From assembly GCA_045545455.1 (NCBI GenBank), contig JAZQAY010000120.1, forward strand, positions 1,195-65,194: 64,000 nucleotides of DNA. Reading direction: 5' to 3'. Shown one piece after another: positions 5,311 through 21,056 of the stretch (position 1 is its first letter; every line of letters starts with the position of its first letter). Both the position numbers and the translations under genes were made by a program. The notes under the pieces were generated by a model. The model was not told where the DNA came from. It saw only the letters and a list, made by a program, of their open reading frames with translations, and did not search any database. This DNA is from Anaerovoracaceae bacterium. GTDB lineage: Bacteria; Bacillota; Clostridia; Peptostreptococcales; Anaerovoracaceae.

Positions 5311-5784
5311 ATGAAAGGCATTTTTACAGTACTGGTAGAGAATAAGTCCGGTGTGCTTTCACAGATCTCCGGATTGTTCGCAAGGCGCGGTTTCAACATA
5401 GACAGCCTTGCTGTAGGCGAAACAGAGCGCCACGATATCTCATCCATGACCATAGTCTCCACAGGAGATGAGAGGACTATAGATCAGATCGAAAAGCACC
5501 TCAATAAGAAGATCGACGTCATCAAGGTGAGAAGGCTGGACGAAGCCCAGACCATCTCCCTGGAAATGATGCTGATGAAGGTGTCATACAACCCCAATAA
5601 CAGAGCAGCTCTCATCGAGCTCTGCACCATCACCGGAGCCAAGATCATGCACGTTTCACCCAAGCATATAATACTTGAGCTCCACAATACTCCGGATTTC
5701 ATCGAGAACTTCATCGAGCTCGTAAGGACTTACGGCATAGTTGAGATCCAGAGGACCGGCACCATATCGCTGGAAAAAAATTAA
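5311..5784 (+). CDS. ilvN: acetolactate synthase small (regulatory, ACT-domain) subunit
   Basis: 157 aa with LVENKSGVLSQISGLFARRGFNIDSLAVG. AGGAGG SD; sits directly after ilvB. Confidence 0.85.
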   Translation: MKGIFTVLVENKSGVLSQISGLFARRGFNIDSLAVGETERHDISSMTIVSTGDERTIDQIEKHLNKKIDVIKVRRLDEAQTISLEMMLMKVSYNPNNRAALIELCTITGAKIMHVSPKHIILELHNTPDFIENFIELVRTYGIVEIQRTGTISLEKN

Positions 5785-7743: not shown

Positions 7744-8265
7744 TTACTTATCCTTGTCGGACTTGGGGCTGAGGAACATATTGATGCCTCTTCCCTCGAA
7801 CTTGGGCTTCTTATCGACCACGCAGATATCCGATAATGACTCTGCGAAATCGTTCATCACCTCAATAGCATGGTTGGCGTAATCTCTTTCTCTTCCTCTT
7901 AAGCGAAGGGATACCTTGACACGGTTTCCTTCCTGGAGGAACTTTGACGCGTTCTTTGCCTTAACCTGAATGTCATGTTCTTCGATGAAAGTTGAAAGTC
8001 TTACTTCCTTGACCTCTGTCACCTTCTGTCTCTTCTTGGCGTCCTTTTCCCTCTTCTGGATCTCATAGCGGTACTTGCCGTAGTCCAGGATCTTGCAGAC
8101 CGGGGGATTGGCGTTGGGAGAAACGTTGACCAGATCGAGATTCTTCTCATCGGCAATGCGAAGCGCTTCCTCAATGGGAAGGATCCCCAGCATGTTGCCT
8201 TCATCATCGATAACTCTTACTTCTGCGTCACGAATTTCTTCGTTGATCAATGCTTCCTTGCTAAT
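7744..8265 (-). CDS. infC: translation initiation factor IF-3 (non-AUG ATT start)
   Basis: The track ORF (199 aa) extends through the leader. GGAGGTG (8280-8274) sits 8 nt upstream of the in-frame ATT at 8265. The product (M)SKEALINEEIRDAEVRVIDDEG parallels the Bacillus IF3 N-terminus. Confidence 0.8.
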   Translation of the reverse strand: MSKEALINEEIRDAEVRVIDDEGNMLGILPIEEALRIADEKNLDLVNVSPNANPPVCKILDYGKYRYEIQKREKDAKKRQKVTEVKEVRLSTFIEEHDIQVKAKNASKFLQEGNRVKVSLRLRGRERDYANHAIEVMNDFAESLSDICVVDKKPKFEGRGINMFLSPKSDKDK

Positions 8266-8298
8266 GGTAATTTCACCTCCTGAGTATGTCGTTCCGAC

Positions 8299-8329
8299 AA
8301 AATAAAAGCGGATGTAAAGAAACATCCGC
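8299..8329 (-). terminator. leader (attenuator) terminator upstream of infC
   Basis: Minus strand reads GCGGATGT-TTCTTT-ACATCCGC followed by TTTTATTTT. It lies between the promoter and the infC SD. Confidence 0.5.
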
Positions 8330-8422
8330 GCACACTGACTCACAGTGATAAAGTCTCTATCAACCTGAACGGGACCATTCTCGTCAGGTGAGAAGCGGAT
8401 ACTTCTTCTTCGTTACTGAACT

Positions 8423-8451: not shown

Positions 8452-8517
8452 GGTGTTTTTAGGGTTTTTCAAAAGTATTTTTTGCTGTGTTTTAACATAT
8501 GCAGGATCAAAAAATAA

Positions 8518-8531
8518 GGAACACCTGTTTA
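8518..8531 (+). promoter_or_regulatory. candidate LexA (SOS/Cheo-type) box upstream of lexA
   Basis: GGAACACCTGTTTA is a GAAC-N4-GTTT arrangement about 90 nt upstream of the lexA ATG. Confidence 0.35.
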
Positions 8532-8621
8532 CTTTTTGTTCGGCATATGGTACAATTATTGCGAACAGACGAACATACATACTTTATTTTGATATTTGAT
8601 ATATTTAAAGAGGTGTTTGAC

Positions 8622-9284
8622 ATGCTTAAGCCAAGACAGCAGAAGATCCTTGAATTCATGAAAGAAGAGATCTCCACCAAGGGTTATCCTCCTACGGTGA
8701 GAGAGATATGTTCCGCCATAGGCATCAAATCCACTTCCACCGTCCATAAGGACATCGAGACCTTGGTAAGCGAGGGCTATCTTAAGAAAGACCCATCAAA
8801 GCCCAGAGCTTTAATGGTGGTGGATCCTAAGACCAAGTCCGGTCACGTAGACGCAGCCGGCACTGCACAGGCTGCTGAAGGAGATGTTCTTCCATATAAT
8901 GTGGTGGAAGTTCCCGTTGTAGGCCGCGTTGCAGCAGGCGAACCGATCTTCGCTGAGCAGAACATCGAGGATTCCTTCCCTCTTCCCGACCGCTTCGTTA
9001 ACGGCGGTAACAACTTCATGCTGAGAGTCAAGGGAGAATCCATGATAGAAGCAGGCATCATGGACGGTGACCTGATCCTGGTGCAGGAGACCAGCGAAGC
9101 CAGAAACGGCGAGATCGTGGTCGCCCTCATCGACGGTATAGAGACAGGTGCTACGGTCAAGACCTTCTACAGAAGAAACGGTAAGATCTACCTCACCCCT
9201 GAGAATAAGACCATGGGCCCTATCATCGTGGACGATGCCACGATCGTAGGCAAGGTCAAGGGTGTATTCAGGTATTTCAACTAA
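8622..9284 (+). CDS. lexA: LexA repressor
   Basis: Start moved to the ATG at 8622 (AAAGAGGTG SD). N-terminus MLKPRQQKILEFMKEEISTKGYPPTVREI, with the VAAGEP cleavage region and the GESM / K S24-peptidase motifs. Confidence 0.9.
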   Translation: MLKPRQQKILEFMKEEISTKGYPPTVREICSAIGIKSTSTVHKDIETLVSEGYLKKDPSKPRALMVVDPKTKSGHVDAAGTAQAAEGDVLPYNVVEVPVVGRVAAGEPIFAEQNIEDSFPLPDRFVNGGNNFMLRVKGESMIEAGIMDGDLILVQETSEARNGEIVVALIDGIETGATVKTFYRRNGKIYLTPENKTMGPIIVDDATIVGKVKGVFRYFN

Positions 9285-9295
9285 GTAAGCAAACT

Positions 9296-9322
9296 AAAAA
9301 CGGGCTCGGGCCCGTTTTTTTT
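9296..9322. terminator. bidirectional terminator (lexA on +, end of the pyl operon on -)
   Basis: AAAAACGGGC-TCGG-GCCCGTTTTTTTT. Confidence 0.6.
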
Positions 9323-9326
9323 ATTG

Positions 9327-10298
9327 TCATCCTATGACCAGCGGCACCAGCACAGGCACCGACAGGCACATCAGAAGTCCTATTCCGAAGCTGTAGACCA
9401 CGGTATCTTCTCTGGCAGACCTTTCAACTATGGGCATGCACACGTCCATGGCAGCCACTCCGGGAACTGCGCAGGCCTCCACATAGCCGATCTTCTGGGC
9501 CAGGAAAGGTATTCCTATTATTCCTGCAACTTCCCTTAGTACGTTATGAAGGAAACTTATGGCAGAGGCTACTGGGTATCCGGCCTGAAGTATGACGTTA
9601 GGCGCATATGTATACCAGCCGAAGCCGCAGGATATGGCGATCCCCTCCCTGAGAGTCATTGGAGATACGGCAGCGTATATTACGCCCCCAAGAACGCTTC
9701 CCAGAACTGCCGCTATGGGGAAGATGATTATCCCTGCTCCGGCTTTTTTAATGTTTCTGAAGACGGAGCCGTCCAGTCCTAATGTCAGTCCAACGGTGCC
9801 TATCAGAAGAACGAGGCAGGCTGTGAGGTATGGATCCGACTTTATCATGAACTCATCCTGAACTCCGAGTTTTTTATATATCAGGAAATAACCCACAGAC
9901 ATGCCCAGGGCGACGACGATGCCTATGATGATCGTCGATTTGATCCCTCCTACGTCCGTCTTTGCATCCCTGGCCATTTTCTGATCCTTAGGCACCCTTT
10001 CATCCCCCACGTTTCCGTAGCGGTCCATCTTAAGTATCTTTCTGGAAAGAGTGATCCCCAGCACGCTCATGACTATGGTTATTATCGTAACTATGAGCGA
10101 CTGTATGCCGATGGTCCCCAGGGAATCCACGATCTCCTTGTTGGCACCCATCCTGAGTCCCATCAGAAGGACCAGGAGATAGACCATGATGTTCATGGCG
10201 CTCTCTACCCAGCCCAGTTTTTCTTTTCTGTCGCGGAGCTTCATTCCCACGATATACATGAGTATGAGTGCGCTCCAGCACATTGCAAGTAATTTCAT
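9327..10298 (-). CDS. LysO/YbjE-family (DUF340) membrane exporter
   Basis: 323 aa, multi-TM. The C-terminal half (CGFGWYTYAPNV...FLHNVLREVAGIIGIP...AMDVCMPIV) resembles E. coli LysO as I remember it. It starts 9 nt after the pylB stop. Confidence 0.55.
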   Translation of the reverse strand: MKLLAMCWSALILMYIVGMKLRDRKEKLGWVESAMNIMVYLLVLLMGLRMGANKEIVDSLGTIGIQSLIVTIITIVMSVLGITLSRKILKMDRYGNVGDERVPKDQKMARDAKTDVGGIKSTIIIGIVVALGMSVGYFLIYKKLGVQDEFMIKSDPYLTACLVLLIGTVGLTLGLDGSVFRNIKKAGAGIIIFPIAAVLGSVLGGVIYAAVSPMTLREGIAISCGFGWYTYAPNVILQAGYPVASAISFLHNVLREVAGIIGIPFLAQKIGYVEACAVPGVAAMDVCMPIVERSAREDTVVYSFGIGLLMCLSVPVLVPLVIG

Positions 10299-10307
10299 AC
10301 GCGATTA

Positions 10308-11288
10308 TTATAAAAACTCCTTAAATTCTTCAGTGCCGGCTATTCTCAGTCCCATGGATCTGAGTATCTCAGATGCCTCTTCCACTGTCCTTCCGCCTTC
10401 GTCCACGTCCATTACGGAGTTTGCGACTCCCATAAGGCCTGACTTCGGAGGTATGATGGACGTTATGAGATTGGCTCCCGCATCTATCCTTTCCTTAAGT
10501 CCTGCGATGCCGTCCACGTCAAGGGATGCCGGTATCAGGGCCTTCGGATAGAGGATCCTCATCAGTGCGATTATCTTAAGTTCCTCCATGCGATCCGGAG
10601 TCCTTACGTTCTCCATAGGGCTTCCCGGCTGAGGTACGAAGCTCATGACCCTAACCTGCCTGGCCCCTATCTCACCCATGGTGAGCAGGGAATCCGCCAC
10701 ATCTTCAGGTGTCTCGCCTACCCCTGAGAGTATGCCCTCCTCGATGAACATTCCGCAGTCCCCGGCATGGAGTTTGGCGTGCATCCGTTCGTCGTAGTCC
10801 TGATCCTTTCTTAGTTTCCTGAACAGTTCCCTGTTATGGGTCTCCTGATACAGCGCAAAGATATCCGCGCCGGCATCTTTAAACTTATCTATGATCTCGT
10901 CAGGCACTACTCCCGGGGATATCATCACCGGCGTTCCCATGTCCTTGAGCTTTCTGATTATCCTGAGGACCGTTTCGAACCCTTCCCTGTGGTACAAAGG
11001 ATCCTCGCCCATTGTAAGGTCAATGAGGTTTACCCCGGAATCCACCAAAGCCTTTGAAAGGGCAAGCACCTCTTCCTCGGTCTTCCTGTATCTTCCGATC
11101 TCGTTTGACCTTCTGAAATAGCAGAAGTTGCAGTTGTTTCTGCAGTAAGTCGTGAAATACACGAAGCCGTAGGCGAATATCTTATCTCCCTGGACCTGAC
11201 GTCTTATCGAAGACGCACGTTCAAAAAGAGCCTTTATTTCTTTTTCATCATCGAATTCGAGAATGCGTACTATCTCTTCTTTAGTCAT
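10308..11288 (-). CDS. pylB: methylornithine synthase PylB (radical SAM)
   Basis: 326 aa with the CRNNCNFC cluster motif. DLTMGEDP, ALYQETHNRELFRKLR, VRVMSFVPQPGSPME and LIPASLDVDGIAG match methanogen PylB motifs. Confidence 0.9.
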   Translation of the reverse strand: MTKEEIVRILEFDDEKEIKALFERASSIRRQVQGDKIFAYGFVYFTTYCRNNCNFCYFRRSNEIGRYRKTEEEVLALSKALVDSGVNLIDLTMGEDPLYHREGFETVLRIIRKLKDMGTPVMISPGVVPDEIIDKFKDAGADIFALYQETHNRELFRKLRKDQDYDERMHAKLHAGDCGMFIEEGILSGVGETPEDVADSLLTMGEIGARQVRVMSFVPQPGSPMENVRTPDRMEELKIIALMRILYPKALIPASLDVDGIAGLKERIDAGANLITSIIPPKSGLMGVANSVMDVDEGGRTVEEASEILRSMGLRIAGTEEFKEFL

Positions 11289-11297
11289 TTACAGATC

Positions 11298-11618
11298 CTA
11301 TTTATGCGTAAGGTCTGAACCATACGTGTCAAAGAATGTCTTGGAATACTTGAGAAGTTTCCACTCCGGCACCTTGCACTTAGGGCATGGCTTGACGGCC
11401 CACTTGTTCCTGAGCCAGCGGGCTGCCCTGGAGTTCCTCGAGTTATACACCCTCAGCTCCTGTCCGCAGTGGGTGGTGATGATGGCGTATTTCCCATAGC
11501 TCTCTATCGACTTTATTCCGTGAAGTATCCCGCTCCTCGCAGGCCAGAGCTTCATCTTTTCCAGAAGGATCAGAAGCTCCACGTTCTTCCTGTAATATCT
11601 CTTGGTATCATCAGCCAT
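11298..11618 (-). CDS. pylSn: pyrrolysyl-tRNA synthetase N-terminal tRNA-binding protein PylSn
   Basis: 106 aa. LW.ARSGILHGIK...HCG.EL.V.NSRNSRAARWLRNK...CPKCKV matches the PylS N-domain (LWMSRTGTLHKIK...NNSRSCRTARAFRHHK...CKRCRV). The stop codon is TAG. Confidence 0.85.
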   Translation of the reverse strand: MADDTKRYYRKNVELLILLEKMKLWPARSGILHGIKSIESYGKYAIITTHCGQELRVYNSRNSRAARWLRNKWAVKPCPKCKVPEWKLLKYSKTFFDTYGSDLTHK

Positions 11619-11676
11619 AAGTCTCTCCTTATGATGACAAGCCCCCGGGACTCTCAGACCAAGGGGCTATAATAAG

Positions 11677-11748
11677 TGGCGAGGTGACCGGGAGTCTCAC
11701 CCGGCTATCTGGATTTAGAGTCCAGGCGATCAATACGATCCTCACCCC
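11677..11748 (-). tRNA. pylT: tRNA-Pyl (anticodon CUA), CCA encoded
   Basis: Minus strand folds as GGGGTGA-G-GATC-GTATT-GATC-G-CCTGGA-CTCTAAA-TCCAGA-TAG-CCGGG-TGAGACT-CCCGG-TCACCTC-G-CCA (72 nt). It shows the tRNA-Pyl hallmarks: 1 nt between the acceptor and D stems, a 5-nt D loop without GG, a long anticodon stem, a 3-nt variable loop and no T-psi-C motif. Confidence 0.85.
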
Positions 11749-11756
11749 TCGTATTA

Positions 11757-12590
11757 TCACGGCATGGTCTTGAGTATCTCACCAAGCATCATAGCCGTTC
11801 CGATCTCAAGGTTATCATAAACAGCGGTATTTTGCAACCTTGCTGCAGCTTTTTCGTCCAAAGAAAGGGGCACTCCGGGGCTGGCATAGTAAACCTCTTC
11901 ACCAAGGTACTCCTCTGTGAGCCATCCTCCCTCATTCGTGAAATCAAGAATGAATCTGTAGTTCTTTATCTCTTCATAAGAACCGAGGACATATCTCCCC
12001 GTTTCAAGGGCATTGAAAGCATCCACAGCTTTAGGATCCTTGTCGTACATATCGAAATCGATATCATGGTTTAACAGGATCTGGACTGCCTCTTCACCTA
12101 CCAGACCATTTCCGATCACAAGGACCTTTTCTTCAGATATATCAAAGCCCGCTCTCTTCATCATGGCTCTGAGCACCATGATGTATCCCAATGCAGTTGC
12201 ATAGTTGTTCTCGCCGAAGCTTCCGTTGTCCCTGCTGAAAGCCAGATATCTGGTATCGTCTGCCATGAATATGACGCCTGCATCCATAAGTATCGAACTG
12301 TAGATACCGTCTACGTCCGTCTCCTCCGGAACGCAGGTCCTGAAACCCATGGATCTGATGATTGAGCTTATGCAGTCAGAGAAAGAGCCTATTATTCCCT
12401 CGCCCTGAGTCACAGGAACAGCTGCCACCAGCAGCTCCGATGCGTACCTGTCATATCTTTCCTTCGATATGCCAAAGGTATCCATCACCAGCCCCGCAAG
12501 ATCGAAGCCCGTCCTGAGCTTCAATTCGCTGTTATACTTATCCATGCCGTCCGTCATGTGATCTATCCATTCAGTCTTAAGTCTGGTCAT
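11757..12590 (-). CDS. pylD: pyrrolysine synthase PylD (dehydrogenase)
   Basis: 277 aa with VPVTQGEGIIGSFS, FMADDTRYLAF, a Rossmann motif (VIGNGLVG), ASPGVP and LEIGTAMML, all parallel to methanogen PylD. Confidence 0.85.
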   Translation of the reverse strand: MTRLKTEWIDHMTDGMDKYNSELKLRTGFDLAGLVMDTFGISKERYDRYASELLVAAVPVTQGEGIIGSFSDCISSIIRSMGFRTCVPEETDVDGIYSSILMDAGVIFMADDTRYLAFSRDNGSFGENNYATALGYIMVLRAMMKRAGFDISEEKVLVIGNGLVGEEAVQILLNHDIDFDMYDKDPKAVDAFNALETGRYVLGSYEEIKNYRFILDFTNEGGWLTEEYLGEEVYYASPGVPLSLDEKAAARLQNTAVYDNLEIGTAMMLGEILKTMP

Positions 12591-12603: not shown

Positions 12604-13449
12604 CTATATGTTCAGCGGTTCACCGTCGATAAATGAAAGCGTTCTCCCATACCTCTTGATGGTGCGCCCCTTATCCAGCGCCATGGTGAGCCTCTCTATA
12701 CCGAAACCGATACCCACCCAGGTATCAAACACTCCCCAGTTGGCATCCAGGAAATGGGGTCCATATGAACCTGAGGCCACTTCCATTCCGTTTATCAGTA
12801 TGTCGAACGAGACCTTGCCGTAAACCTCAGAGTCCTCCTGTACGAATTCGTATTCGCCTTCCTTGAGGCCCAGGGCTTCCATGGCGTTAAGCGCAAGCCT
12901 TTCAAGTTCCTGAAGCTGCTCTCCGTCCTTTACGGAAGCCAGTTCCACGAGATTAAGCATGGTGAACTCGTTCAGGTGCTGTGCACCCTGAGATTCCTTC
13001 CTGAAGCAAGACCCCATCTCAAAGATCTTAACGGGCTGTTTGGTGATCCTAAGGAGCTCCCTCATCTCAACGTAGAGATTCGGGGCAAGCATAGGTCTTA
13101 AGCAATGCTTTCCGTCCACCCAAAAGACCTGTTCCAGAAACTGCGATCCCGAGTCTATCCCCATCTTCTTAAGGGAGTCCTTCGATATGATCGTAGGAGT
13201 TATCACCTCGGTGAATCCCTCGTCCATAAGCCACTGGCACATCTTATTCCCCGTTATGCGGTATTTCGTCATGTGGCGGGATCCGAGAAGATCGTAGATA
13301 TCGTTTCTGGCATATCTCGTCAGTTCCTTTTCAAGCTTTCTGAAATGCTCGTTTCTCTCTTCCTTTGTTTCAAACTCCCTGTCCTGCTCCTCTTCAGGGC
13401 AGTTCAGTTCGTTCAGCCTTTCTGACTGTGTAACAGTGTATTTCTCCAT
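12604..13449 (-). CDS. pylSc: pyrrolysyl-tRNA synthetase catalytic subunit PylSc
   Basis: 281 aa with VITPTIISK, FWVDGKHCLRPMLAPNLY, CFRKESQGAQHLNEFTMLNL and GIGFGIERL. These are nearly identical to the Desulfitobacterium PylSc motifs as I remember them. The stop codon is TAG. Confidence 0.9.
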   Translation of the reverse strand: MEKYTVTQSERLNELNCPEEEQDREFETKEERNEHFRKLEKELTRYARNDIYDLLGSRHMTKYRITGNKMCQWLMDEGFTEVITPTIISKDSLKKMGIDSGSQFLEQVFWVDGKHCLRPMLAPNLYVEMRELLRITKQPVKIFEMGSCFRKESQGAQHLNEFTMLNLVELASVKDGEQLQELERLALNAMEALGLKEGEYEFVQEDSEVYGKVSFDILINGMEVASGSYGPHFLDANWGVFDTWVGIGFGIERLTMALDKGRTIKRYGRTLSFIDGEPLNI

Positions 13450-14534
13450 TTCAGCACCTCGTGCTCATCCTTTCCCCAATTGATGAATATTCCCCTGAAA
13501 TCGGACGCAGAGTCCTTATAGTCAGTCATGGTCTCCATGGAGCCCATGAAACATTTTCTGAAAGTGAGAGGCCCGGCATCCCTCATGATGTGCTCGCCCT
13601 CCTGAGTTATGACGCCGTTTGATTTTTTATAGTTCTCATAGGCGCAAAAGATCTTTTCCTGACCCTTTCCCGCAGTGTTCTCATCCCTGAATCCGCCGTA
13701 AAGAGTGACGTCCGTCAGTTCCTTAAGGAGGTTCATGCCAGAAGATTTAAGAACCGCTATGGGCGTCTGGCTGGGTATCCTGGCGTCGATCTCAAGGACC
13801 TTAAGGTCTTCCCCATCGTCGATCACTTCCACGTCCATTATTCCTTTGAGACCGACCAGTTCGGCCAGCCTCACCGCGATATCTGAAAATCTTCTCAGTT
13901 TTTCTTCGGGAAGTCTTACCGGAGAAGTGATCATATAGCAGTCGTATCCCTTGTCCACGTGGACTTCCGTCACGGTATAGGTCCTGTAGTTTCCCGGCCT
14001 TCCTATGACCTCGATGGAGTAAGAGGGTCCCTCCAGATACTCCTGGATGATATCTCCTTCTTTTTTCTCCTTAAGCGCCGCTTCCAGTTCATCCTCAGTA
14101 CATATTTTCTTTACTCCTGTGGATCCGGACCCGTCAGACGGTTTCATAACGTAGGGAAGTTTGCCTTCAGGATAATACCTGGGGCACGGTATACCGTTAT
14201 CCATGAACAGCCTGTCCGACTTTATCTTTGACTTTGTGATCTCATATGCGGCCGGATCGAAAGCGAGAGGCTTATGATACCTTTCTGCAAGTTCGCAGAT
14301 CTTGGCCAGAAGTTCATCGTTTTCGTTTGCAGGAAGTATGATGTCCGCCTCCCTGAAGGCTTCAAGTACGGCGGGGGCCTCATTCACCAGATCTCCCGGT
14401 ACGAACCCGTAAGCCAGCCCTCCCGCCGGAACTTCAGGATCTATATCTATCAGTATGCTTTTCATGCCGCAGGCTCCGGCTAGGTAGCATGCCTCCGTGC
14501 CCTGCAGCCTTCCTCCGATAATACAAATTTTCAT
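13413..14534 (-). CDS. pylC: 3-methylornithine--L-lysine ligase PylC (ATP-grasp)
   Basis: 373 aa with MKICIIGGRLQGTEACYLA and GIMDVEVI...LKVLEIDARIPSQTP. The ATG directly abuts the upstream stop (TAAATG). Confidence 0.9.
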   Translation of the reverse strand: MKICIIGGRLQGTEACYLAGACGMKSILIDIDPEVPAGGLAYGFVPGDLVNEAPAVLEAFREADIILPANENDELLAKICELAERYHKPLAFDPAAYEITKSKIKSDRLFMDNGIPCPRYYPEGKLPYVMKPSDGSGSTGVKKICTEDELEAALKEKKEGDIIQEYLEGPSYSIEVIGRPGNYRTYTVTEVHVDKGYDCYMITSPVRLPEEKLRRFSDIAVRLAELVGLKGIMDVEVIDDGEDLKVLEIDARIPSQTPIAVLKSSGMNLLKELTDVTLYGGFRDENTAGKGQEKIFCAYENYKKSNGVITQEGEHIMRDAGPLTFRKCFMGSMETMTDYKDSASDFRGIFINWGKDEHEVLKWRNTLLHSQKG

Positions 14535-16811
14535 TTAAAACCTCATGGCAAGCATGTATTTTTCCTGGAAGTCAGATCTGGTAGCAAGTTCTACATGTTC
14601 TATCGTTTCCGCAGCTTTTACGGTCTCACCGAAAGCGTCCTCTGAAAGGAGAGCCATGGAAGCACCGATACCTGCCGAGTTTCCGATCGAAAAGATCTTA
14701 TCCCTGTCTATATCGGGAATGAGACCGCAGTTTACGGCGGATTCCTTTCTGATGTATGAACCGAAGGCTCCCGCTATGGATACCTTTGCAAGATCATCTT
14801 TGGACATTCCGAGTTCGCTCATAAGCGTTTCCTCGCCCGCCTTGATGGCTGCCTTGGCAAGCTGGATCTCCCTCACGTCCTTTTGGGTTATCATTATGTC
14901 GTTTCCTTCAGGGTCCTTATACAGGGTGAGATAATATCCCTCTTCATTCTTGCCCACGCTGTCTATGATGGCCTGAGGAACGCCCTTCTTTAAGAGTTTT
15001 TCAGGAGGCAGAAGTTTTCCTGTCTTATCAACAACTCCGGTCCTGACCATCTCGCCTATGGCGTCGATTATACCTGAACCGCAGATGCCTGTGGGTTTAC
15101 AGTCTCCTATTACGCCTATCTTCACGCCCTCCTCCGAAAGGTCCACCCTTTCGATGGCTCCGGATGCCGCACGCATGCCCTGAGCGATCGAGCTTCCCTC
15201 AAATGCGGGTCCCGCAGCAGTTGAACATGTGGCTATCCTGCCGTTTCCGCTGAAGACGATCTCCCCGTTCGTTCCTATATCGATGAAGAGATGTCCCTTA
15301 TCCTTATCCAGGATATCCGTTGCTATAAGGCCTGCGGTAATGTCAGAACCAACATGGCCCGCGATGTTCGGAACAAGCTTGAGCTCTGCGTCATCGGCTC
15401 CCTTAAGGCCGAGTTCTGCAGCCTTCCTGAATACCGGTCCCTCAAACTGAGGTTTGAACGGCGATACAGCCAGACTTCTCGGATCCACCCCGAGAAAAAG
15501 ATGAGACATGGTGGTATTCCCTACCACGACGTACTTTCTGATGGCTGAAAAGTCGTAGGCCGATCCTTCGATGAAGCCCTCCACCGACTTATTGATGCCC
15601 TTTATCACGCTCTTGTGGAGAGCCTCCAGGCCCTTCTCGTTTTCCATGGTGTATTGGATCCTGGAAATGACGTCGGCCCCCCAGGTTCCCTGTGGATTGG
15701 TGAAGGCGTCGATATCCAGCATTTCTCCTGTCTCCAGATCCCAGAGCATAACTACTACGGTGGTCGTTCCTATATCCACGGATACTCCCAGGCACTCACC
15801 CCTGTCAGCCTTAAAGCCTTCAGGAAGCTTCACCAGTTTCTTTTTTCTCTTAGCGGTAGTCTCCACCTCAGGAACCGTTACAGTCATGCCGTCCTCAGGA
15901 GCAACTGCACAGGCAAGTTCATATTTTTCAACACCTATAGCAGTCCTTATCCTCACCCGGCATTTGAGGCAGGTACCCTTGCCTCCGCAGTTGCCGTCGA
16001 TGTTCACACCGACTTTGGAAGCGCACTCAAGGATGGAACCAAGGGCCTTCCCCTTATACTCTATGTTCATGGGCATGAATCTCATTGAGATCGTTTCGCC
16101 CTCTTGTTTTCTTCTCATATTTATCTCGCAGAAGTCACAGCCCTTGGAATTTCCCATGCATCTCATGCAGGCCGGCTCCTTCTCAAGTTCGTGATTCAGC
16201 ACAAAAAACAGTCCGGCACAACTCTTCTGCGGTATCATCATACCGCTGTCCCTGACCTTGACACCTATGGCGCCTGCGTCCAGGATCTTTTCGAATTCTC
16301 TGGTACGGCCTACGAACATGCCGTAATAACCGGGGCCGAACTCCTCGGACAGAATGACGTCCTTACCGGGGAAGCGTTCCTTCATGTCGGGGATCACGTA
16401 GTCCTCCCTCAGGGCTTCAATCCCGGAATCCACGTATGAATTCCCCCAGATATCCGCGAAGAGGAATTCCATGATCTTATCCTCAGACTCAAAGAGACAT
16501 TCTCCCACGGTCATCATGTAGATGTATATTCCCTCCACGTACTCAGGAGGGATCCTGGTGAAATAGTTGCAGTCCAGGACCGCGTCCTCAATGCAGATCT
16601 TACCGTCTCTGAAGGCTTCCGGGCCGACGAACCTCACCACCGATCTGATGTCGATACCTTCTACTCCGCTTTCTCTGGCCTTAAGACCTTCTGCAAGCAT
16701 CCTCTGATGTTTCCTGGAACCTCCCGGCACGATGCCGCAGGTATTGAGAAACCTCTTCTCAGCACCGGCATGCGCCCTCTCTTCACTTATTCTTATTACT
16801 TGATTCAGCAT
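14535..16811 (-). CDS. reductive activator of corrinoid enzymes (RamA/RACE-type: MetH-activation-like domain + 2Fe-2S ferredoxin + ASKHA ATPase)
   Basis: 758 aa with a 2Fe-2S motif (CGGKGTCLKCRV) and ASKHA phosphate motifs (VDIGTTTVV, IDIGTNGEI). The N-terminal ~230 aa resemble the B12-dependent methionine synthase activation domain. Confidence 0.7.
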   Translation of the reverse strand: MLNQVIRISEERAHAGAEKRFLNTCGIVPGGSRKHQRMLAEGLKARESGVEGIDIRSVVRFVGPEAFRDGKICIEDAVLDCNYFTRIPPEYVEGIYIYMMTVGECLFESEDKIMEFLFADIWGNSYVDSGIEALREDYVIPDMKERFPGKDVILSEEFGPGYYGMFVGRTREFEKILDAGAIGVKVRDSGMMIPQKSCAGLFFVLNHELEKEPACMRCMGNSKGCDFCEINMRRKQEGETISMRFMPMNIEYKGKALGSILECASKVGVNIDGNCGGKGTCLKCRVRIRTAIGVEKYELACAVAPEDGMTVTVPEVETTAKRKKKLVKLPEGFKADRGECLGVSVDIGTTTVVVMLWDLETGEMLDIDAFTNPQGTWGADVISRIQYTMENEKGLEALHKSVIKGINKSVEGFIEGSAYDFSAIRKYVVVGNTTMSHLFLGVDPRSLAVSPFKPQFEGPVFRKAAELGLKGADDAELKLVPNIAGHVGSDITAGLIATDILDKDKGHLFIDIGTNGEIVFSGNGRIATCSTAAGPAFEGSSIAQGMRAASGAIERVDLSEEGVKIGVIGDCKPTGICGSGIIDAIGEMVRTGVVDKTGKLLPPEKLLKKGVPQAIIDSVGKNEEGYYLTLYKDPEGNDIMITQKDVREIQLAKAAIKAGEETLMSELGMSKDDLAKVSIAGAFGSYIRKESAVNCGLIPDIDRDKIFSIGNSAGIGASMALLSEDAFGETVKAAETIEHVELATRSDFQEKYMLAMRF

Positions 16812-16836
16812 TTGTTTTTTATGTGTATTATTTAAG

Positions 16837-16961
16837 CAAAAGTATGTGATTCGGATATTCCACAGCGTCGGTACTTAGCGATTGCCAAGCTTTCAGCGCA
16901 GGCAGAGCTTAGTACCGTTACGCGAGGACAAAGTGCAAACGGTCCGAATCACATACTTTTG
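16837..16961. repeat. 125-nt long imperfect inverted repeat (19-bp perfect outer arms)
   Basis: CAAAAGTATGTGATTCGGA (16837-16855) pairs with TCCGAATCACATACTTTTG (16943-16961). The interior is again partly self-complementary (CGGTACTTAGC / GCTTAGTACCG). Confidence 0.7.
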
Positions 16962-16978
16962 ATTACCGGGAATGCACT

Positions 16979-17019
16979 TGAAAAACAAAGGGTGGTCCGT
17001 CTCCTTGACTTACCACCCT
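16979..17019 (-). terminator. intrinsic terminator after mtbB
   Basis: Minus strand reads AGGGTGGT-(15 nt)-ACCACCCT followed by TTGTTTTTC. Confidence 0.6.
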
Positions 17020-17074
17020 GTTGTTATAAAAGTTGGTTTGTTTCTGAATTCAGGTTAGTTCTAAGTCAGTTCTC

Positions 17075-18481
17075 TTATTTCAGTCCTGCCCTCTCCTTGA
17101 ACCTTTCAACGGAGTTGATCTTGATGTCGAGAACTTCAGCTATCCTGAACTTGGCTGCCATGCCGTTGTTTTCTTCTTTGCAAGGCTCTACGTGGCAAAG
17201 TCCAAGTCCCATATCTCTTCTGACATCGGACATTGTTACTACGTCGCATAATTCTGCAACGGTCACACCGAGCTTAGAAGCTACATACTCCTTCGCCTCG
17301 TCGATCTTCATCTTCTTGGCGAGCTGCATTCTGAGTACCAGGTCACCTGCCGTACGTACTCCTCCCATGCCAGCGCAGATAGCATGTGTAGCCTCCTGGC
17401 CCAAAGGATCACCTACGCCTACCTAGAAGCCGTCGATCTTACCCAGCTCGACGAGAGCTTTGTCAGCTCTTGACATTACGTCAACGGGCATGATCTCTAC
17501 CATCGGGATACCGCAAACACCCATACCTACGTCAGCGTGTACGGGGATGTTGGCTACCTTGGTGCAGGCCTGTACGAAAGTGATTACTCTGGCCATGTTC
17601 CATGCAAAGGATTTGTTGCAGTTGGTATTGACTACAAGTCCGAAAATTGAAGCTCCGGCCTGCTCAGCAAGCTTTACCTGATCATGAGGATAAAGGCCTG
17701 CGAGACGCTTGCCGTTGTATTTCAGCTTACCATGCATACCGAGAACGAATTCTCCTGCCATTCCGATCTCAACGGGGAAATCGGGATATTTGGTAGTGAT
17801 GGCTTCACAAGCTCTGAGAGCGGCCAGGAAGTCCGCATCACCTGCTGCTCCGCAGGTGTCAAGGTTCATTCCGTCAGCTCCTACGTCATAAGCCTGATCA
17901 GCTACATAGCAGATGTCCTTGATGGAATATTCAACTGCCTCCTCCTGTGCTTCAAGGGCTTCCTTGATGTGTCCGTCAGGAAGAAGTGTTGCCCAGTTGC
18001 CCGCGGGGCCATCCGGCTTGGTGTAGAATCCAAGGTCGGGCATGCCGCCGAAAAGCAGAGGCATAGTCGTAACGTTAAGGGCCTGCTTGAGAGCTCCCGC
18101 ATCACGCTTGGCAACTCCTTTAGCGGTCTTATAGTTGTAGTCGGTGTTTCCGATATCAACGGAATCGCATCCGAGACATCTCTCGTAGATAAGGGTCTCC
18201 ATTTCCTTAGGGAGAGGCATCTGAGACTTGACGTTGATCTTGTATCCGCCGGAGTCGTTGGTATTTACGATCTCTTTGCCGGGTTCAACGCCGACCACAC
18301 CGCCGGGCATGGTGATGATCTCATAGAGACGTTCGAAGTCTTCTTCGCTCATGGGGTCGATCTTACCGCGCTTGACGGCATCAGCCATGCCTTCACGCAT
18401 GTCTTGTCGGATCTCTTCCTCGGTCATGAAGACGATCGAACCATCACCCATTCGGCTTTGGTATTTCTTTTCTTCTGCCAT
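17075..18481 (-). CDS. mtbB: dimethylamine:corrinoid methyltransferase MtbB, Pyl-containing (in-frame UAG)
   Basis: Track ORFs 17423..18481 and 17075..17404 share one frame. They are separated only by TAG plus six sense codons (VGVGDP). The joined product is 468 aa. ...VELGKIDGF-[UAG]-VGVGDPLG...AGDLVLRM...EAKEYVA parallels methanogen MtbB around its Pyl. Confidence 0.9.
17423..17425 (-). other. in-frame amber (UAG) codon of mtbB, predicted pyrrolysine
   Basis: Plus-strand cta = minus-strand TAG. The reading frame is open on both sides. Confidence 0.85.
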
Positions 18482-18514: not shown

Positions 18515-20002
18515 TTATCTCTTGGACGCTTTGAACTTAGCAAGCTCTTCAGCTTCTCTCTCGCCCTCTTCAACGATGTTGTGGATAGCTCTCTGGATAT
18601 CCTCAGGAAGGGGTTCGGGATGATAATTCTCTAAGATATCGATGGCTTTGGCATGGGCAGCTTCCGTCATGGTCATTGAACCCTTCTTCTCCCAGGTCTC
18701 TCTCTGCGTACGGTCGATATACCTGGTGGTGGAAAGTTCTTTTCTCATGTACTTCAGAGTATGTCTTGTAGCCAGATAGTTGTTGGCAGGACCTACCTCC
18801 TTGATAACGTCCAGTGCCAGTGTATCTTTGTTGACGGGGATACCGTATTCGAGTCTCCTTGACATCCTTGAGATCTCCGCGTCACAAAGCAACTGCTCAT
18901 AGCTCATTGTCATACCCATTTCCATCATTCCCATTCCGTAGATCAGGTTGGAGCCTGCAAGTGCGGGAACGACGTTTGTGATGGTCTTTTCATGTCCTAA
19001 CTGGACATCGAAACATTTGCTGTCCGCCTACGTGCCGCCTACGTTAGTAGGTATTCCGTAATAGTGTCCGATCTGGCCTACCGCAGCTGAACACATGGCG
19101 TGCTCAGGAGCGCCTACCGGAGACTGTGCGGTCTTCATATCCATTATGGTAGTGGATGTACCGTAAAGGATGGGGTTTCCGGGATTCAGAATCTGGGATA
19201 AAGTGATTCCGGAAAGGATCTCAGCATTGGTGCATACCAGCGTTCCTGCCATCGTGGCGGGAGTGGTCGCTCCGCAGAGTCCCATGGAAAGGATGTCGAT
19301 GGGAAGTCCGTACTTGGCTGAAAGCCTTATGATGGATGTCTCATTCTCATTCACTTCCAGAGGGCTGTTGGGGCAGGCACCCATGGTGATGATGGGTCTT
19401 TCTCTCAGCTTATCATATCCGCCCTGGATAAGGGCAGCCATGTCGATGAATCTCTGTGTGTTTTTGATACCTTCAAGGTCGTGAGCGAAGTTCTTGGTAA
19501 GGTTGTTGAGAACTACCTCAGCTTCGTGAAGGGATCTTACCTTCTGGTTTACGTCTCCTGCTGTAACTGCTATGGAGAAGCAGTTGATCTCAGGGATGGC
19601 GTCTACGAATCTTGCTACGTTTCCGAGGTCTTCCTTGGTGGATTCTCTCAGTTCTCCGGTATAGGGGTCAAAGATGAATACGCCTGTTCCGAAGTTCTTG
19701 TAGCATACTTTCTTACCTCCGAGAACGGTATCGTTCTTGGGATCTCTTCCGCAAAGCGTGATCTCTGCGGGAGTGGACTCGATGGCATCATTAACAAGGC
19801 CCTTGGGGAACCTTACTCTGTCATTTTCATAATCAACTTCACAGCCTGCGCCTTCTAATATTTCAAGCGCTTCCTTGCCGTGCATCTGTACGCCGAAGTC
19901 ATGCATGAGATCCAGAGTCGCTTCATGGATGGCATCGAGATCCTCATTGGTCAGAACATGATAACCGAGCATGTCGGTATCGTAAGTAAACTTCTTGCTC
20001 AT
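18515..20002 (-). CDS. mttB: trimethylamine:corrinoid methyltransferase MttB, Pyl-containing (in-frame UAG)
   Basis: Track ORFs 19028..20011 and 18515..18934 are in one frame. Between them lie TAG plus 31 sense codons (ADSKCFDVQLGHEKTITNVVPALAGSNLIYG). The joined product is 495 aa from the ATG at 20002 (AGGAG SD). Confidence 0.9.
19028..19030 (-). other. in-frame amber (UAG) codon of mttB, predicted pyrrolysine
   Basis: Plus-strand cta = minus-strand TAG in the context ...IPTNVGGT-[UAG]-ADSK... Confidence 0.85.
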
Positions 20003-20035
20003 ATGATTCACTCTCCTGTTCAGCTTTTTGGCTGT

Positions 20036-20683
20036 TTAGTTGTTTGCGATCCAGTCCATTATGAAGTTAACTGTATCAGATGCGTCTTCGCAGTACTGGT
20101 CTGCACCGATCTTATCTGCCCAGCGTCCTGTAACAGGAGCTCCGCCTACCATGGTCTTTACCTTGTCACGGATACCTGCTTCCTTGAGTGCTTCCTCGAT
20201 ATCCTTCTGAACTGTCATGGTGGTGGTAAGGAGTGCCGATGAACCAACGAAATCTGCGTTATGCTCGATAGCTGCGTCTACGAAGTTCTGAGCGGGAACT
20301 TCTCTTCCGAGGTCTACTACCTTGACGCCGTTTGTCTTGACAAGTGAAGCAACGATACCTTTTCCGATATCGTGAACGTCGCCTTCAACTGTTCCGATTA
20401 CCAGGGTACCCTTCTGCTGAACGTTGGACATATCCATCTTGCCCTCGATCTCTTCAGATACGGTCTTCATTACTTCGGTTGCAAAAATAAGTTCAGGAAG
20501 GAAGATCTCACCCATACCGAACTGATCTCCGAGTTCCTTCATGCCGGCGCTGTAGCCCTGTGTAAGCAGCTCGACCAGGTCAAGGCCTTCTTCTTCGGCC
20601 TCCTGGAGTGCTTCCATAGCCATATCCTCATCTGCTTCAATGATGGAATCTTTGGCTTTCTCGTAAATTGCTTCTTTAGCCAT
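20036..20683 (-). CDS. mttC: methylamine-type corrinoid (B12-binding) protein
   Basis: Start moved to MAKEAIYEK (GGAGGAAAATTT-ATG). It has the helical cap plus B12-binding Rossmann domain with the DxHxxG motif (GDVHDIGK). Confidence 0.85.
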   Translation of the reverse strand: MAKEAIYEKAKDSIIEADEDMAMEALQEAEEEGLDLVELLTQGYSAGMKELGDQFGMGEIFLPELIFATEVMKTVSEEIEGKMDMSNVQQKGTLVIGTVEGDVHDIGKGIVASLVKTNGVKVVDLGREVPAQNFVDAAIEHNADFVGSSALLTTTMTVQKDIEEALKEAGIRDKVKTMVGGAPVTGRWADKIGADQYCEDASDTVNFIMDWIANN

Positions 20684-21056
20684 AAATTTTCCTCCAAACA
20701 ATAATTTATATGCTTCTTTTCATCCGTGTAGTATTCCTAATATACTACGTTTATTATTATACAACTTTTGTGTCAAGCTTTGTACAGTATAAAAGGCGAT
20801 TAGTTTGCAATAGTTTTTCATTTTGTTGCCATCATGCACGTTTTAGTTATGCATATTTTGTATTAAAAAAACTGTATTCATAACTTATTTGCCAATGCGT
20901 CAAAAATGCCGGGCTTGTGCAAAATAGTTCAGTAAGATAGCAAACTAATTTTGATAATTGTTAAGGAAGAATCTATTGATTTATAGTAAAATATATACGT
21001 AGGTTTATATCGTTATATATCAACTATATTTAACTATAAGAAGAACAGGTGATTTT

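Follow-up and report, generated by a model that had tools for sequence, protein, structure and literature searches.

A tRNAPyl gene placed between pylD and pylSn in the pyrrolysine gene string of gut and rumen Clostridia

Results

The pyl locus and its embedded tRNA gene

The stretch of DNA analysed here, referred to as the window, comprises 64,000 nucleotides (nt) of contig JAZQAY010000120.1 from an Anaerovoracaceae bacterium (assembly GCA_045545455.1) and contains pylT, the gene for the amber-decoding transfer RNA (tRNA) tRNA-Pyl(CUA), which reads the stop codon UAG as pyrrolysine, the 22nd amino acid, among protein-coding genes for pyrrolysine biosynthesis and charging. The gene is 72 nt long, lies on the minus strand with its 5' end at 11748 and its 3' end at 11677, and reads GGGGUGAGGAUCGUAUUGAUCGCCUGGACUCUAAAUCCAGAUAGCCGGGUGAGACUCCCGGUCACCUCGCCA. 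It belongs to a string of genes which on the minus strand follow one another as mttC-like, mttB, mtbB, a RACo/RamA-like activase gene (ramA below), pylC, pylSc, pylD, pylT, pylSn, pylB, a LysO-family gene (lysO) and a terminator (Table 1). All five Pyl proteins score above their NCBIfam equivalog cut-offs; the NCBIfam AcsV and RamA matches of the RACo/RamA-like activase are below theirs.

From ramA to lysO every gene is on the same strand with gaps of -37 to +13 nt, and the only larger gap setting is that around pylT, where the pylD stop codon (TGA, 11759-11757) leaves an 8-nt leader before the tRNA and the pylSn start codon (ATG, 11618-11616) leaves a 58-nt spacer behind it. An earlier note on this DNA, made from the letters alone, had given both distances exactly, and its placement of the tRNA between pylD and pylSn-pylB, within a tight same-strand gene string, is confirmed by the gene calls. 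At the level of predicted genes, this uncultured Clostridia bacterium of rumen type is confirmed to have a complete and self-consistent pyrrolysine system, with tRNA, split synthetase and biosynthesis genes as well as trimethylamine and dimethylamine methyltransferase genes that contain UAG.

Table 1. Features of the pyl gene string and its surroundings, in window coordinates.
Feature	Position	Strand	Evidence or remark
mttC-like corrinoid protein	20036..20701	minus	Pfam B12-binding and B12-binding_2
mttB, trimethylamine methyltransferase, one in-frame TAG (19030-19028)	18515..20011	minus	translation, Pfam MTTB
PYLIS_3 match in mttB			Rfam RF02510, 73.3 bits
mtbB-type dimethylamine methyltransferase, one in-frame TAG (17425-17423)	17075..18481	minus	translation, Pfam Dimeth_Pyl
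PYLIS_2 match in mtbB			Rfam RF02509, 42.1 bits
RACo/RamA-like corrinoid reductive activase, abuts pylC	14535..16811	minus	Pfam RACo_C_ter and Raco_middle
pylC, 3-methylornithine--L-lysine ligase	13413..14534	minus	NCBIfam TIGR03909, 342.9 bits, cut-off 248.3
pylSc, catalytic subunit of pyrrolysyl-tRNA synthetase, stop codon TAG	12604..13449	minus	NCBIfam TIGR02367, 259.4 bits, cut-off 178.15
pylD, 3-methylornithyl-N6-L-lysine dehydrogenase	11757..12590	minus	NCBIfam TIGR03911, 166.4 bits, cut-off 150.05; Pfam PylD_N
5' leader from pylD stop to pylT +1, 8 nt, context AUAAUACGA, A at -1	11749..11756	minus	sequence
pylT, tRNA-Pyl(CUA)	11677..11748	minus	ARAGORN, covariance models R1 and R2, covariation
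GC-rich hairpin AGCCCCU...GGGGGCU with weak U tail UGUCAUCAU	11640..11668	minus	folds in 8 of 8 distinct rumen-clade spacers
Shine-Dalgarno sequence of pylSn, AAGGAGAG	11623..11630	minus	9 nt past the hairpin, 4 nt before ATG; conserved in the clade
pylSn, small tRNA-binding subunit of the split synthetase	11298..11618	minus	NCBIfam TIGR03912, 121.2 bits, cut-off 51.15
pylB, methylornithine synthase, radical SAM	10308..11288	minus	NCBIfam TIGR03910, 444.9 bits, cut-off 348.2
LysO-family (lysine exporter-like) membrane protein, last gene of the string	9327..10298	minus	Pfam PF03956
Bidirectional intrinsic terminator closing the gene string	9296..9319	both	terminator scan: 10-bp stem, T runs on both strands

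Cloverleaf and identity elements

The 5' half of the tRNA is laid out as GGGGUGA / G / GAUC / GUAUU / GAUC / G / CCUGGA / CUCUAAA and the 3' half, after the anticodon loop, as UCCAGA / UAG / CCGGG / UGAGACU / CCCGG / UCACCUC / G / CCA. The acceptor stem comprises 7 base pairs (bp) including a G2:U71 wobble and is separated by a single nucleotide from the D arm, which has a 4-bp stem and a 5-nt loop (GUAUU) without GG. A single nucleotide also precedes the anticodon arm, with a stem of 6 positions and the loop CU-CUA-AA; it is followed by a 3-nt variable loop, a 5-bp T stem, a T loop (UGAGACU) without T-psi-C, the discriminator G and a CCA encoded in the DNA. The folding energy of this cloverleaf is -27.8 kcal/mol, against a minimum free energy (MFE) of -28.5 kcal/mol.

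These are the compact and atypical cloverleaf features listed for tRNAPyl (PMC3941956), with a single deviation: at its top the anticodon stem has a C·A mismatch (window 11707 and 11725; tRNA positions 23 and 41), found in every member of the window's clade, whereas the pair is Watson-Crick in almost all other lineages sampled. The earlier note had described the cloverleaf as it is found here, feature by feature and with exact coordinates, and covariation backs its description; it had left unstated that the gene is on the minus strand and had overlooked the C·A pair.

Recognition by pyrrolysyl-tRNA synthetase (PylRS) involves the identity elements G1:C72, G73 and a G:C pair in the T stem (Ambrogelly 2007 as cited in PMC9499178), and the features listed for tRNAPyl include G1:C72, G73, U33 and A37 (PMC9499178). 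pylT has both G1:C72 and G73, which do not vary within the lineage, there are G:C pairs in its T stem (CCGGG/CCCGG), and U33 and A37 flank the CUA anticodon in a loop that is invariant in 12 sequences of the lineage. pylT has every testable defining feature of tRNAPyl and departs only from the generic Rfam tRNA model and from the textbook gene order.

tRNAPyl-specific models, covariation and annotation tools

Two checks named in the earlier note, ARAGORN and a tRNAPyl covariance model, both returned the gene. ARAGORN called tRNA-Pyl(cta) at 11677-11750 of the minus strand as the only tRNA in the 64 kb. Its drawing imposes a canonical layout, at the cost of two extra 5' nucleotides and mismatches; this 74-nt drawing was rejected, since the 72-nt layout is gapless against Methanosarcina mazei tRNAPyl and backed by covariation. 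The two tRNAs share their architecture and are identical at 49 of 72 positions (the M. mazei reference sequence was reconstructed from primers in PMC12274524).

A first covariance model, R1, drew on 12 distinct pylT sequences from the lineage of the window and gave one match per source in all 35 sources (the window and 34 related loci, described below), at 90-104 bits, with 98 bits for the window. Because R1 contains the window's own sequence, a second model, R2, was restricted to 14 pylT genes from other clades, among them the genes that lead the cluster in Sporomusa sp. KB1 and Desulfosporosinus sp. PR. R2 found a single match in the 64 kb, running from 11748 to 11677 (88.4 bits, E 4.7e-21), and, conversely, these leading pylT genes scored 86-89 bits with a model built from the window's lineage.

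The cloverleaf is 99% paired on both alignments of relatives. Pairs changed on both sides number 8 (alignment A2) and 11 (alignment A4), compared with 1-3 when the 3' partners were slid, and the observed covariation was matched by none of 500 shuffles. Compensatory changes were found in the acceptor, anticodon and T stems, and in the 12-sequence alignment of both clades, with a mean column identity of 91%, G2:U71 is invariant. Taken by itself, the folding energy of pylT does not reach significance (z = -1.7; equally good folds arose in 9 of 200 shuffles).

The generic Rfam tRNA family (RF00005) gave no match at the gathering score in the window and none at E<=10 in 11400-12000. This miss is a limit of the generic model, fits a tRNAPyl without the conserved D-loop and T-loop elements and is not evidence against the gene; as an argument against pylT it was rejected, family-specific models scoring the tRNA highly. 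The earlier note had offered a covariance score below threshold as grounds for abandoning the tRNA, a test that would misfire with the generic model and that pylT passes with the tRNAPyl-specific ones. ARAGORN also missed pylT in six of the 35 loci (L015, L019, L021, L022, L030 and L032), in all of which the covariance model recovered it at full length (91-99 bits), so routine annotation will miss a fraction of these genes.

pylT follows pylD throughout the lineage

Related loci were collected by a PylD-based scan with one genome per species, limited to two PylD peptide patterns, which yielded 34 loci and, with the window, the 35 sources. The best PylD match to the window is 93% identical, and the closest named genome, the rumen metagenome-assembled genome (MAG) 'uncultured Clostridiales RUG12614', is at 90%. 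Exactly one pylT is present in each of the 35 sources, and in 33 of them it stands directly after pylD. The window and four rumen relatives share the order ramA-pylC-pylSc-pylD-pylT-pylSn-(pylB)-lysO, and about 28 Anaerovoracaceae-type genomes, among them cultured Emergencia timonensis SN18 and the complete genome of Ihubacter sp. rT4E-8, have ramA-pylB-pylC-pylSc-pylD-pylT-(cobW-like GTPase)-pylSn-lysO. The two most distant loci (L030 and L032) read ramA-pylT-pylB-pylC-pylSc-pylD-pylSn. The step from pylD to pylT recurs in 11 of 11 metagenome contigs bearing the same tRNA. Judged from these loci, the position of pylT behind pylD is typical of this lineage of gut and rumen Clostridia and not a one-off.

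More distant PylD proteins were sampled for further layouts (L046-L053; pyl prefixes omitted). The tRNA gene leads the cluster in Sporomusa sp. KB1 (L046, T-Sc-B-C-D-Sn), Desulfosporosinus sp. PR (L047, T-Sc-x-B-C-D-Sn) and L053 (T-Sn-Sc-B-C-D), and follows ramA in a Eubacteriaceae MAG (L051, ramA-T-B-C-Sc-D-Sn). It adjoins pylD in two further operon layouts, L049 (ramA-Sc-corrinoid-Sn-D-T-B-C, with T 7 nt after pylD) and L052 (…C-D-T, with pylT at the operon end), and Lentihominibacter (L050) has C-Sc-D and a separate T-Sn pair 5.5 kb away. The position of pylT thus varies among bacterial lineages in at least five ways.

Bacterial orders have been given as 'generally' pylTScBCDSn or pylSnScBCD (PMC3941956) and bacterial pyl arrangements as 'more variable, but compact' (PMC11467909); our literature search found no description of the pylD-pylT-pylSn order. 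The remark in the earlier note that pylT usually leads the cassette agrees with the first of these sources and with Sporomusa and Desulfosporosinus, but for the lineage of the window it overstates the rarity of the arrangement. What is seen here is a gene-order variant, present in dozens of public genomes and apparently undescribed, and not a new mechanism or kind of molecule.

Several differences in gene content accompany these layouts. The window, L001, L004, L036, L040 and L043 have pylB between pylSn and the LysO-like gene; in L002, L003, L037 and L044 the LysO-like gene follows pylSn directly and pylB is missing from the cluster and the fetched flanks, so that in these four it must lie elsewhere or have been lost. 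In most Anaerovoracaceae-type loci (L005-L033, e.g. L010 11018-11938) a CobW/COG0523 GTPase gene is found between pylT and pylSn, often starting 15-29 nt past the CCA of pylT. A gene for a PadR-family regulator follows pylSn in Emergencia timonensis.

The LysO-like PF03956 gene is a conserved last member of the pyl cluster in the rumen clade and in the Anaerovoracaceae-type loci (most of L001-L034). Its product may transport lysine, pyrrolysine or methylornithine; we know of no described role for a LysO-family protein in pyrrolysine biology.

Leader, trailer and spacing of pylT

When 41 distinct junctions are compared, the sequence preceding pylT shows the consensus A(-4) Y(-3) R(-2) U(-1). 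The base at -1 is U in 38 of these, C in two and A in the window only (window 11749), and the A-Y-R-U motif is also found at leading pylT genes. On the other side of the gene, U occupies positions +1 to +3 after CCA in 31-33 of the 41 junctions. U at -1 is a preference of bacterial ribonuclease P (RNase P). Selection on a U(-1) leader implies that the leader exists; if U(-1) matters for RNase P, the window's precursor would be a slightly poorer substrate.

Of 43 loci, 30 have 13 nt or less between the pylD stop codon and pylT, the shortest distance being 4 nt, and in 13 loci the next start codon follows the CCA after 15-29 nt, with a Shine-Dalgarno sequence a few nucleotides past the CCA. Such spacers leave no room for a separate promoter or terminator. 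No acceptable -10 hexamer of a σ70-type promoter positioned for a start at G1 was found in 19 of the 41 distinct junctions, and the best promoter score within the 60 nt upstream of pylT was 7.2 of 12, compared with 6.7 of 12 at control positions, with none conserved. The hexamer TATTAT right after the CCA was considered as a promoter for pylSn and rejected, since a -35 partner is lacking and L001-L004 do not share the hexamer.

In the leading arrangement, a σ54-type element (TGGCA-N6-TTGCA) lies about 25-40 nt upstream of pylT in Sporomusa sp. KB1 (L046, about 5600-5653) and Desulfosporosinus sp. PR (L047, about 4205-4263), and genes for σ54 activators are found near these pylT genes, which suggests that the canonical cassette of these two bacteria may be under σ54 control. 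No σ54 element was found near the pyl and mtt genes of the window, where matches are at or below chance, and a σ54 promoter for its pylT was rejected.

A hairpin between pylT and pylSn in the rumen clade

The hairpin in the spacer between pylT and pylSn begins 8 nt past the CCA, and 9 nt separate it from the Shine-Dalgarno sequence of pylSn. Its outer stem is nearly invariant, the sequence of the inner stem varies with pairing kept, and folding of the 60-nt spacers around the hairpin gives -19 to -31 kcal/mol. Two pairs show double changes among the eight sequences, which is not enough to establish a selected structure over and above the folding of every sequence. The hairpin was not called by the terminator scan, its tail UGUCAUCAU being U-poor, and it is limited to the rumen clade and absent from the Anaerovoracaceae-type loci. 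It may be a leaky terminator that would set the ratio of proximal to distal expression, a 5' protection of a pylSn-pylB-lysO fragment, or both; since a promoter would not fit in front of pylSn, termination is unlikely to be complete.

Further downstream, the stretch CAUCAUAAGGAGAGACUUAUGGCUGAUG (window 11614-11635, minus) could form a small hairpin in which the start-codon region of pylSn pairs with CAU/AAG upstream and the Shine-Dalgarno sequence is placed in the loop. It is conserved in 6-7 of the eight spacers, without compensatory changes, and its conservation may reflect only the ribosome-binding site and the coding sequence.

Discussion

Probable co-transcription and excision of pylT

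We consider it probable that pylT is a functional gene of the split-PylRS system which has no transcription signals of its own, is co-transcribed with its neighbours and is then released by processing. It would supply the UAG-decoding tRNA for mttB and mtbB, encoded a few kb upstream. We infer that it is transcribed within a long minus-strand message covering ramA-pylC-pylSc-pylD-pylT-pylSn-pylB-lysO, possibly continuing from the mtt and mtb genes, that RNase P would cleave at G1, 8 nt past the pylD stop codon, and that an endonuclease, 3' exonucleases or both would trim the U-rich trailer to the encoded CCA. Excision would split the message into a pylC-pylSc-pylD part and a pylSn-pylB-lysO part, and the hairpin would then lie near the new 5' end of the distal part, most likely serving as end protection or as a leaky terminator. 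Excision from a polycistronic message had been put forward in the earlier note, and it is the reading best supported by the tiny spacers, the lack of a conserved promoter or terminator, U(-1) and the U-rich trailer, all of them features of the DNA.

Under this scheme tRNAPyl would be made only while the methylamine/pyl operon is on. TAG terminates 8 of the 52 long open reading frames (ORFs) in the window, pylSc among them, and 15-35% of the pyl genes across loci; since it is still an ordinary stop codon, coupling tRNAPyl to the methylamine operon would limit unwanted read-through. Condition-dependent pyl expression is on record for Acetohalobium arabaticum (PMC11467909).

Several observations weigh against co-transcription followed by excision. 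The window's own pylT has A, not U, at -1, and the window contains a σ70-like site with 9 of 12 matches, GTGAGA-18-GATAAT (11782-11753), whose -10 element ends 4 nt before G1. This site is absent from L001, a relative with 90% identity, which has GCGAGA...GAAAGA instead; as a conserved promoter it was rejected, the closest relatives lacking it, and there is a small chance of a promoter specific to the window. The promoter scan used a simple consensus that may not describe the promoters of this lineage of Clostridia. A conserved terminator-like hairpin also lies before ramA, so that the 5' end of the transcript can be placed only tentatively. Downstream, there is a resemblance between the hairpin of the window and the canonical terminators found behind pylT in L036, L037 and L041 (weaker in L041), and transcription might largely stop at this hairpin. 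As in a mixed operon of tRNA and messenger RNA (mRNA), pylT is on the strand of its neighbours and has no conserved promoter, a picture made only partly clean by the U-poor hairpin downstream in the window's clade.

Alternative readings of the locus

If the hairpin (11668-11640) were an efficient terminator, pylT would be the last gene of a ramA-pylC-pylSc-pylD-pylT unit with its 3' end set by termination, and expression of pylSn-pylB-lysO would depend entirely on an unrecognised promoter or on rare read-through. A terminator would suit the GC-rich and stable structure of the hairpin, canonical hairpins with U runs occupy the same site in L036 and L037 (and, weaker, in L041), unrelated DNA separates pylT from pylSn in L036 and L037, and the operon of L052 ends with pylT. 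The U-poor tail and the negative terminator scan speak against termination in the window, as do the 9 nt between hairpin and Shine-Dalgarno sequence, which hold no downstream promoter, and the shared pathway of pylSn and pylB, which must be expressed with the rest. Anaerovoracaceae-type loci, moreover, lack the hairpin and have their next ORF 15-29 nt past the CCA. We regard an efficient terminator at this site as unlikely.

A promoter for pylT in the 3' end of pylD, namely the GTGAGA-18-GATAAT site, would give a nearly leaderless transcript that also drives pylSn-pylB-lysO, so that pylT would in a sense lead a pylT-pylSn-pylB sub-operon fused behind pylC-pylSc-pylD. Matches of at least 8 of 12 occur at 12% of junctions, compared with 2.5% of control positions, and a pylT-pylSn module with its own promoter exists elsewhere, as indicated by the free-standing pylT-pylSn pair of Lentihominibacter (L050) and by L053, in which pylT precedes pylSn. 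Against these points stand the lack of the motif even in the closest relatives, the 19 junctions without an acceptable -10 hexamer, the position of the window's own hexamer, since a normal promoter would need more than 4 nt between -10 and start site, and the conserved U(-1), which implies a recognised leader that a leaderless transcript would not need. There is in our view only a small chance that pylT is transcribed in this way.

A more speculative possibility is that the embedded tRNA acts as a regulatory device, in which unprocessed tRNAPyl would be bound by PylSn, or by PylSn and PylSc, and feed back on the translation or processing of pylSn(-pylB). Such a device, modelled on the synthetase/tRNA-mimic operators of thrS, could make use of a tRNA 15-58 nt upstream of the pylSn start, and to our knowledge the only known job of PylSn is the binding of tRNAPyl. 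pylT adjoins pylSn in at least four layouts (the window's clade; L017-19, L029 and L034; L050; L053), a recurrence which hints at feedback but for which a relic of the archaeal pylT-pylS order would account just as well. Were the regulatory reading true, the adjacency would be selected and not a relic, an RNase P cut 4-8 nt past the pylD stop codon would strip the pylC-pylSc-pylD mRNA of any 3' protection, and the hairpin would protect the distal mRNA. We consider this a long shot.

That pylT is a decayed or chance tRNA-like element, with the true gene elsewhere in the genome, has a negligible probability: the missing Rfam tRNA match, an unexceptional folding energy compared with shuffles and one C·A pair are outweighed by 88-98 bits with tRNAPyl-specific models, compensatory substitutions keeping every stem across lineages, a single copy in each related locus, the presence of G1:C72, G73, U33 and A37, and intact dependent genes with in-frame UAG.

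Comparison with known systems

The canonical pylT-pylSc-pylB-pylC-pylD-pylSn cassette of the Desulfitobacterium hafniense type has the same six components as the window, a split PylRS, the 72-nt tRNAPyl architecture and the A-Y-R-U leader, and in L046 and L047 it is likewise linked to genes for methylamine methyltransferases and corrinoid proteins. In that cassette pylT comes first, upstream of pylSc, whereas in the window (pylC-pylSc-pylD-pylT-pylSn-pylB) it follows pylD and pylB stands at the end; the σ54 -24/-12 element before pylT in Sporomusa and Desulfosporosinus also has no counterpart near the window's pyl genes. The Anaerovoracaceae-type cluster of Emergencia timonensis and Ihubacter sp. 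has, like the window, pylT tightly 3' of pylD on the same strand, with pylSn and the LysO-like gene downstream, and its tRNA is similar in sequence. It differs from the window in having pylB first instead of toward the end, usually a CobW-family GTPase gene between pylT and pylSn, no GC-rich hairpin after pylT, and a tRNA with a fully paired anticodon stem where the window's clade has C·A at the top.

Archaea encode PylRS in a single fused gene, and their pyl cluster is uninterrupted and begins with pylT (PMC3941956, PMC9499178). The pylTSBCD cluster of Methanosarcina encodes a tRNA of the same length and cloverleaf, and its pylT is followed by the start of pylS, which codes for the N-terminal tRNA-binding domain, just as pylT of the window is followed by pylSn, which codes for the equivalent domain. 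Unlike in the window, transcription and processing there depend on archaeal machinery.

Mixed tRNA-mRNA operons occur in bacteria, for example thrU-tyrU-glyT-thrT-tufB, metY-nusA-infB and secG-leuU of Escherichia coli. In these a tRNA is co-transcribed with protein genes, released at its 5' end by RNase P and trimmed at its 3' end to CCA, and the mRNA is severed, as would be the case here. PMC2190699 deals with RNase P processing of polycistronic tRNA transcripts. Such operons carry housekeeping tRNAs, usually at one end, whereas the window has a recoding tRNA in the middle of the operon for its own amino acid and synthetase, in this and related loci down to 4-8 nt from the upstream stop codon. 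In the tRNA punctuation of mitochondria, tRNAs between ORFs are the cleavage sites that separate mRNAs. Punctuation is genome-wide in these organelles, whereas a single tRNA in one bacterial operon is concerned here, and its cleavage may not be needed for mRNA function.

The survey places pylT, in many gut and rumen Clostridia including Emergencia timonensis, wedged behind pylD and a few nucleotides from neighbouring ORFs, and not at the head of the cassette. For annotation it is of consequence that the generic Rfam model overlooks the gene and that ARAGORN does so in 6 of 35 loci. The arrangement bears on how bacteria in which TAG still serves as a stop codon may restrict amber suppression to certain conditions, and engineers may find in it a natural case of a suppressor tRNA that would be expressed inside an mRNA operon.

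Other features of the window and its relatives

The TAG stop codon of pylSc lies at 12604-12606, and read-through would append 8 codons. TAG is not conserved at this place among relatives, and a conserved pylSc TAG stop as a feedback element was rejected, the stop codons of pyl genes varying freely among relatives. In L032, L037, L051 and L053 a TAG-ended pylSc is in frame with pylD, such that read-through with pyrrolysine would yield a PylSc-PylD fusion; this arrangement may be due to chance.

Directly 3' of mtbB, a terminator-like hairpin (GGGUGGU, 15 nt, ACCACCC) is followed by UUUGUUUUU (window 16981-17017, minus). L001, L003 and L004 share this hairpin, at a distance of about 25-30 nt from the ramA start downstream of it, and it was missed by the consensus terminator scan because of its long loop. 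It may attenuate transcription between the genes for the abundant methyltransferases and the ramA-pyl genes.

The gap between mtbB and the RamA-like gene also contains a near-perfect palindrome of about 123 nt (window 16838-16960, minus), the arms of which begin AAAAGTATGTGATTCGG and CCGAATCACATACTTTT. For the 231-nt stretch around it (16805-17035) the MFE is -83.9 kcal/mol, which compared with shuffles corresponds to z = -8.1. The palindrome is present in the window and partly in L002, is absent from L001, L003 and L004, and has no second copy in the window. A role as regulatory leader of the operon was rejected, as L001, L003 and L004 do without it; it looks like an inserted repeat, similar to a miniature inverted-repeat transposable element (MITE) or a repetitive extragenic palindrome (REP), and not like a conserved leader.

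Beyond the end of the gene string, and unrelated to pylT, lexA is encoded on the plus strand (8499-9284), and a Firmicute L20 leader (RF00558, 67.5 bits, window 8294-8416, minus) lies upstream of infC (7744-8343, minus).

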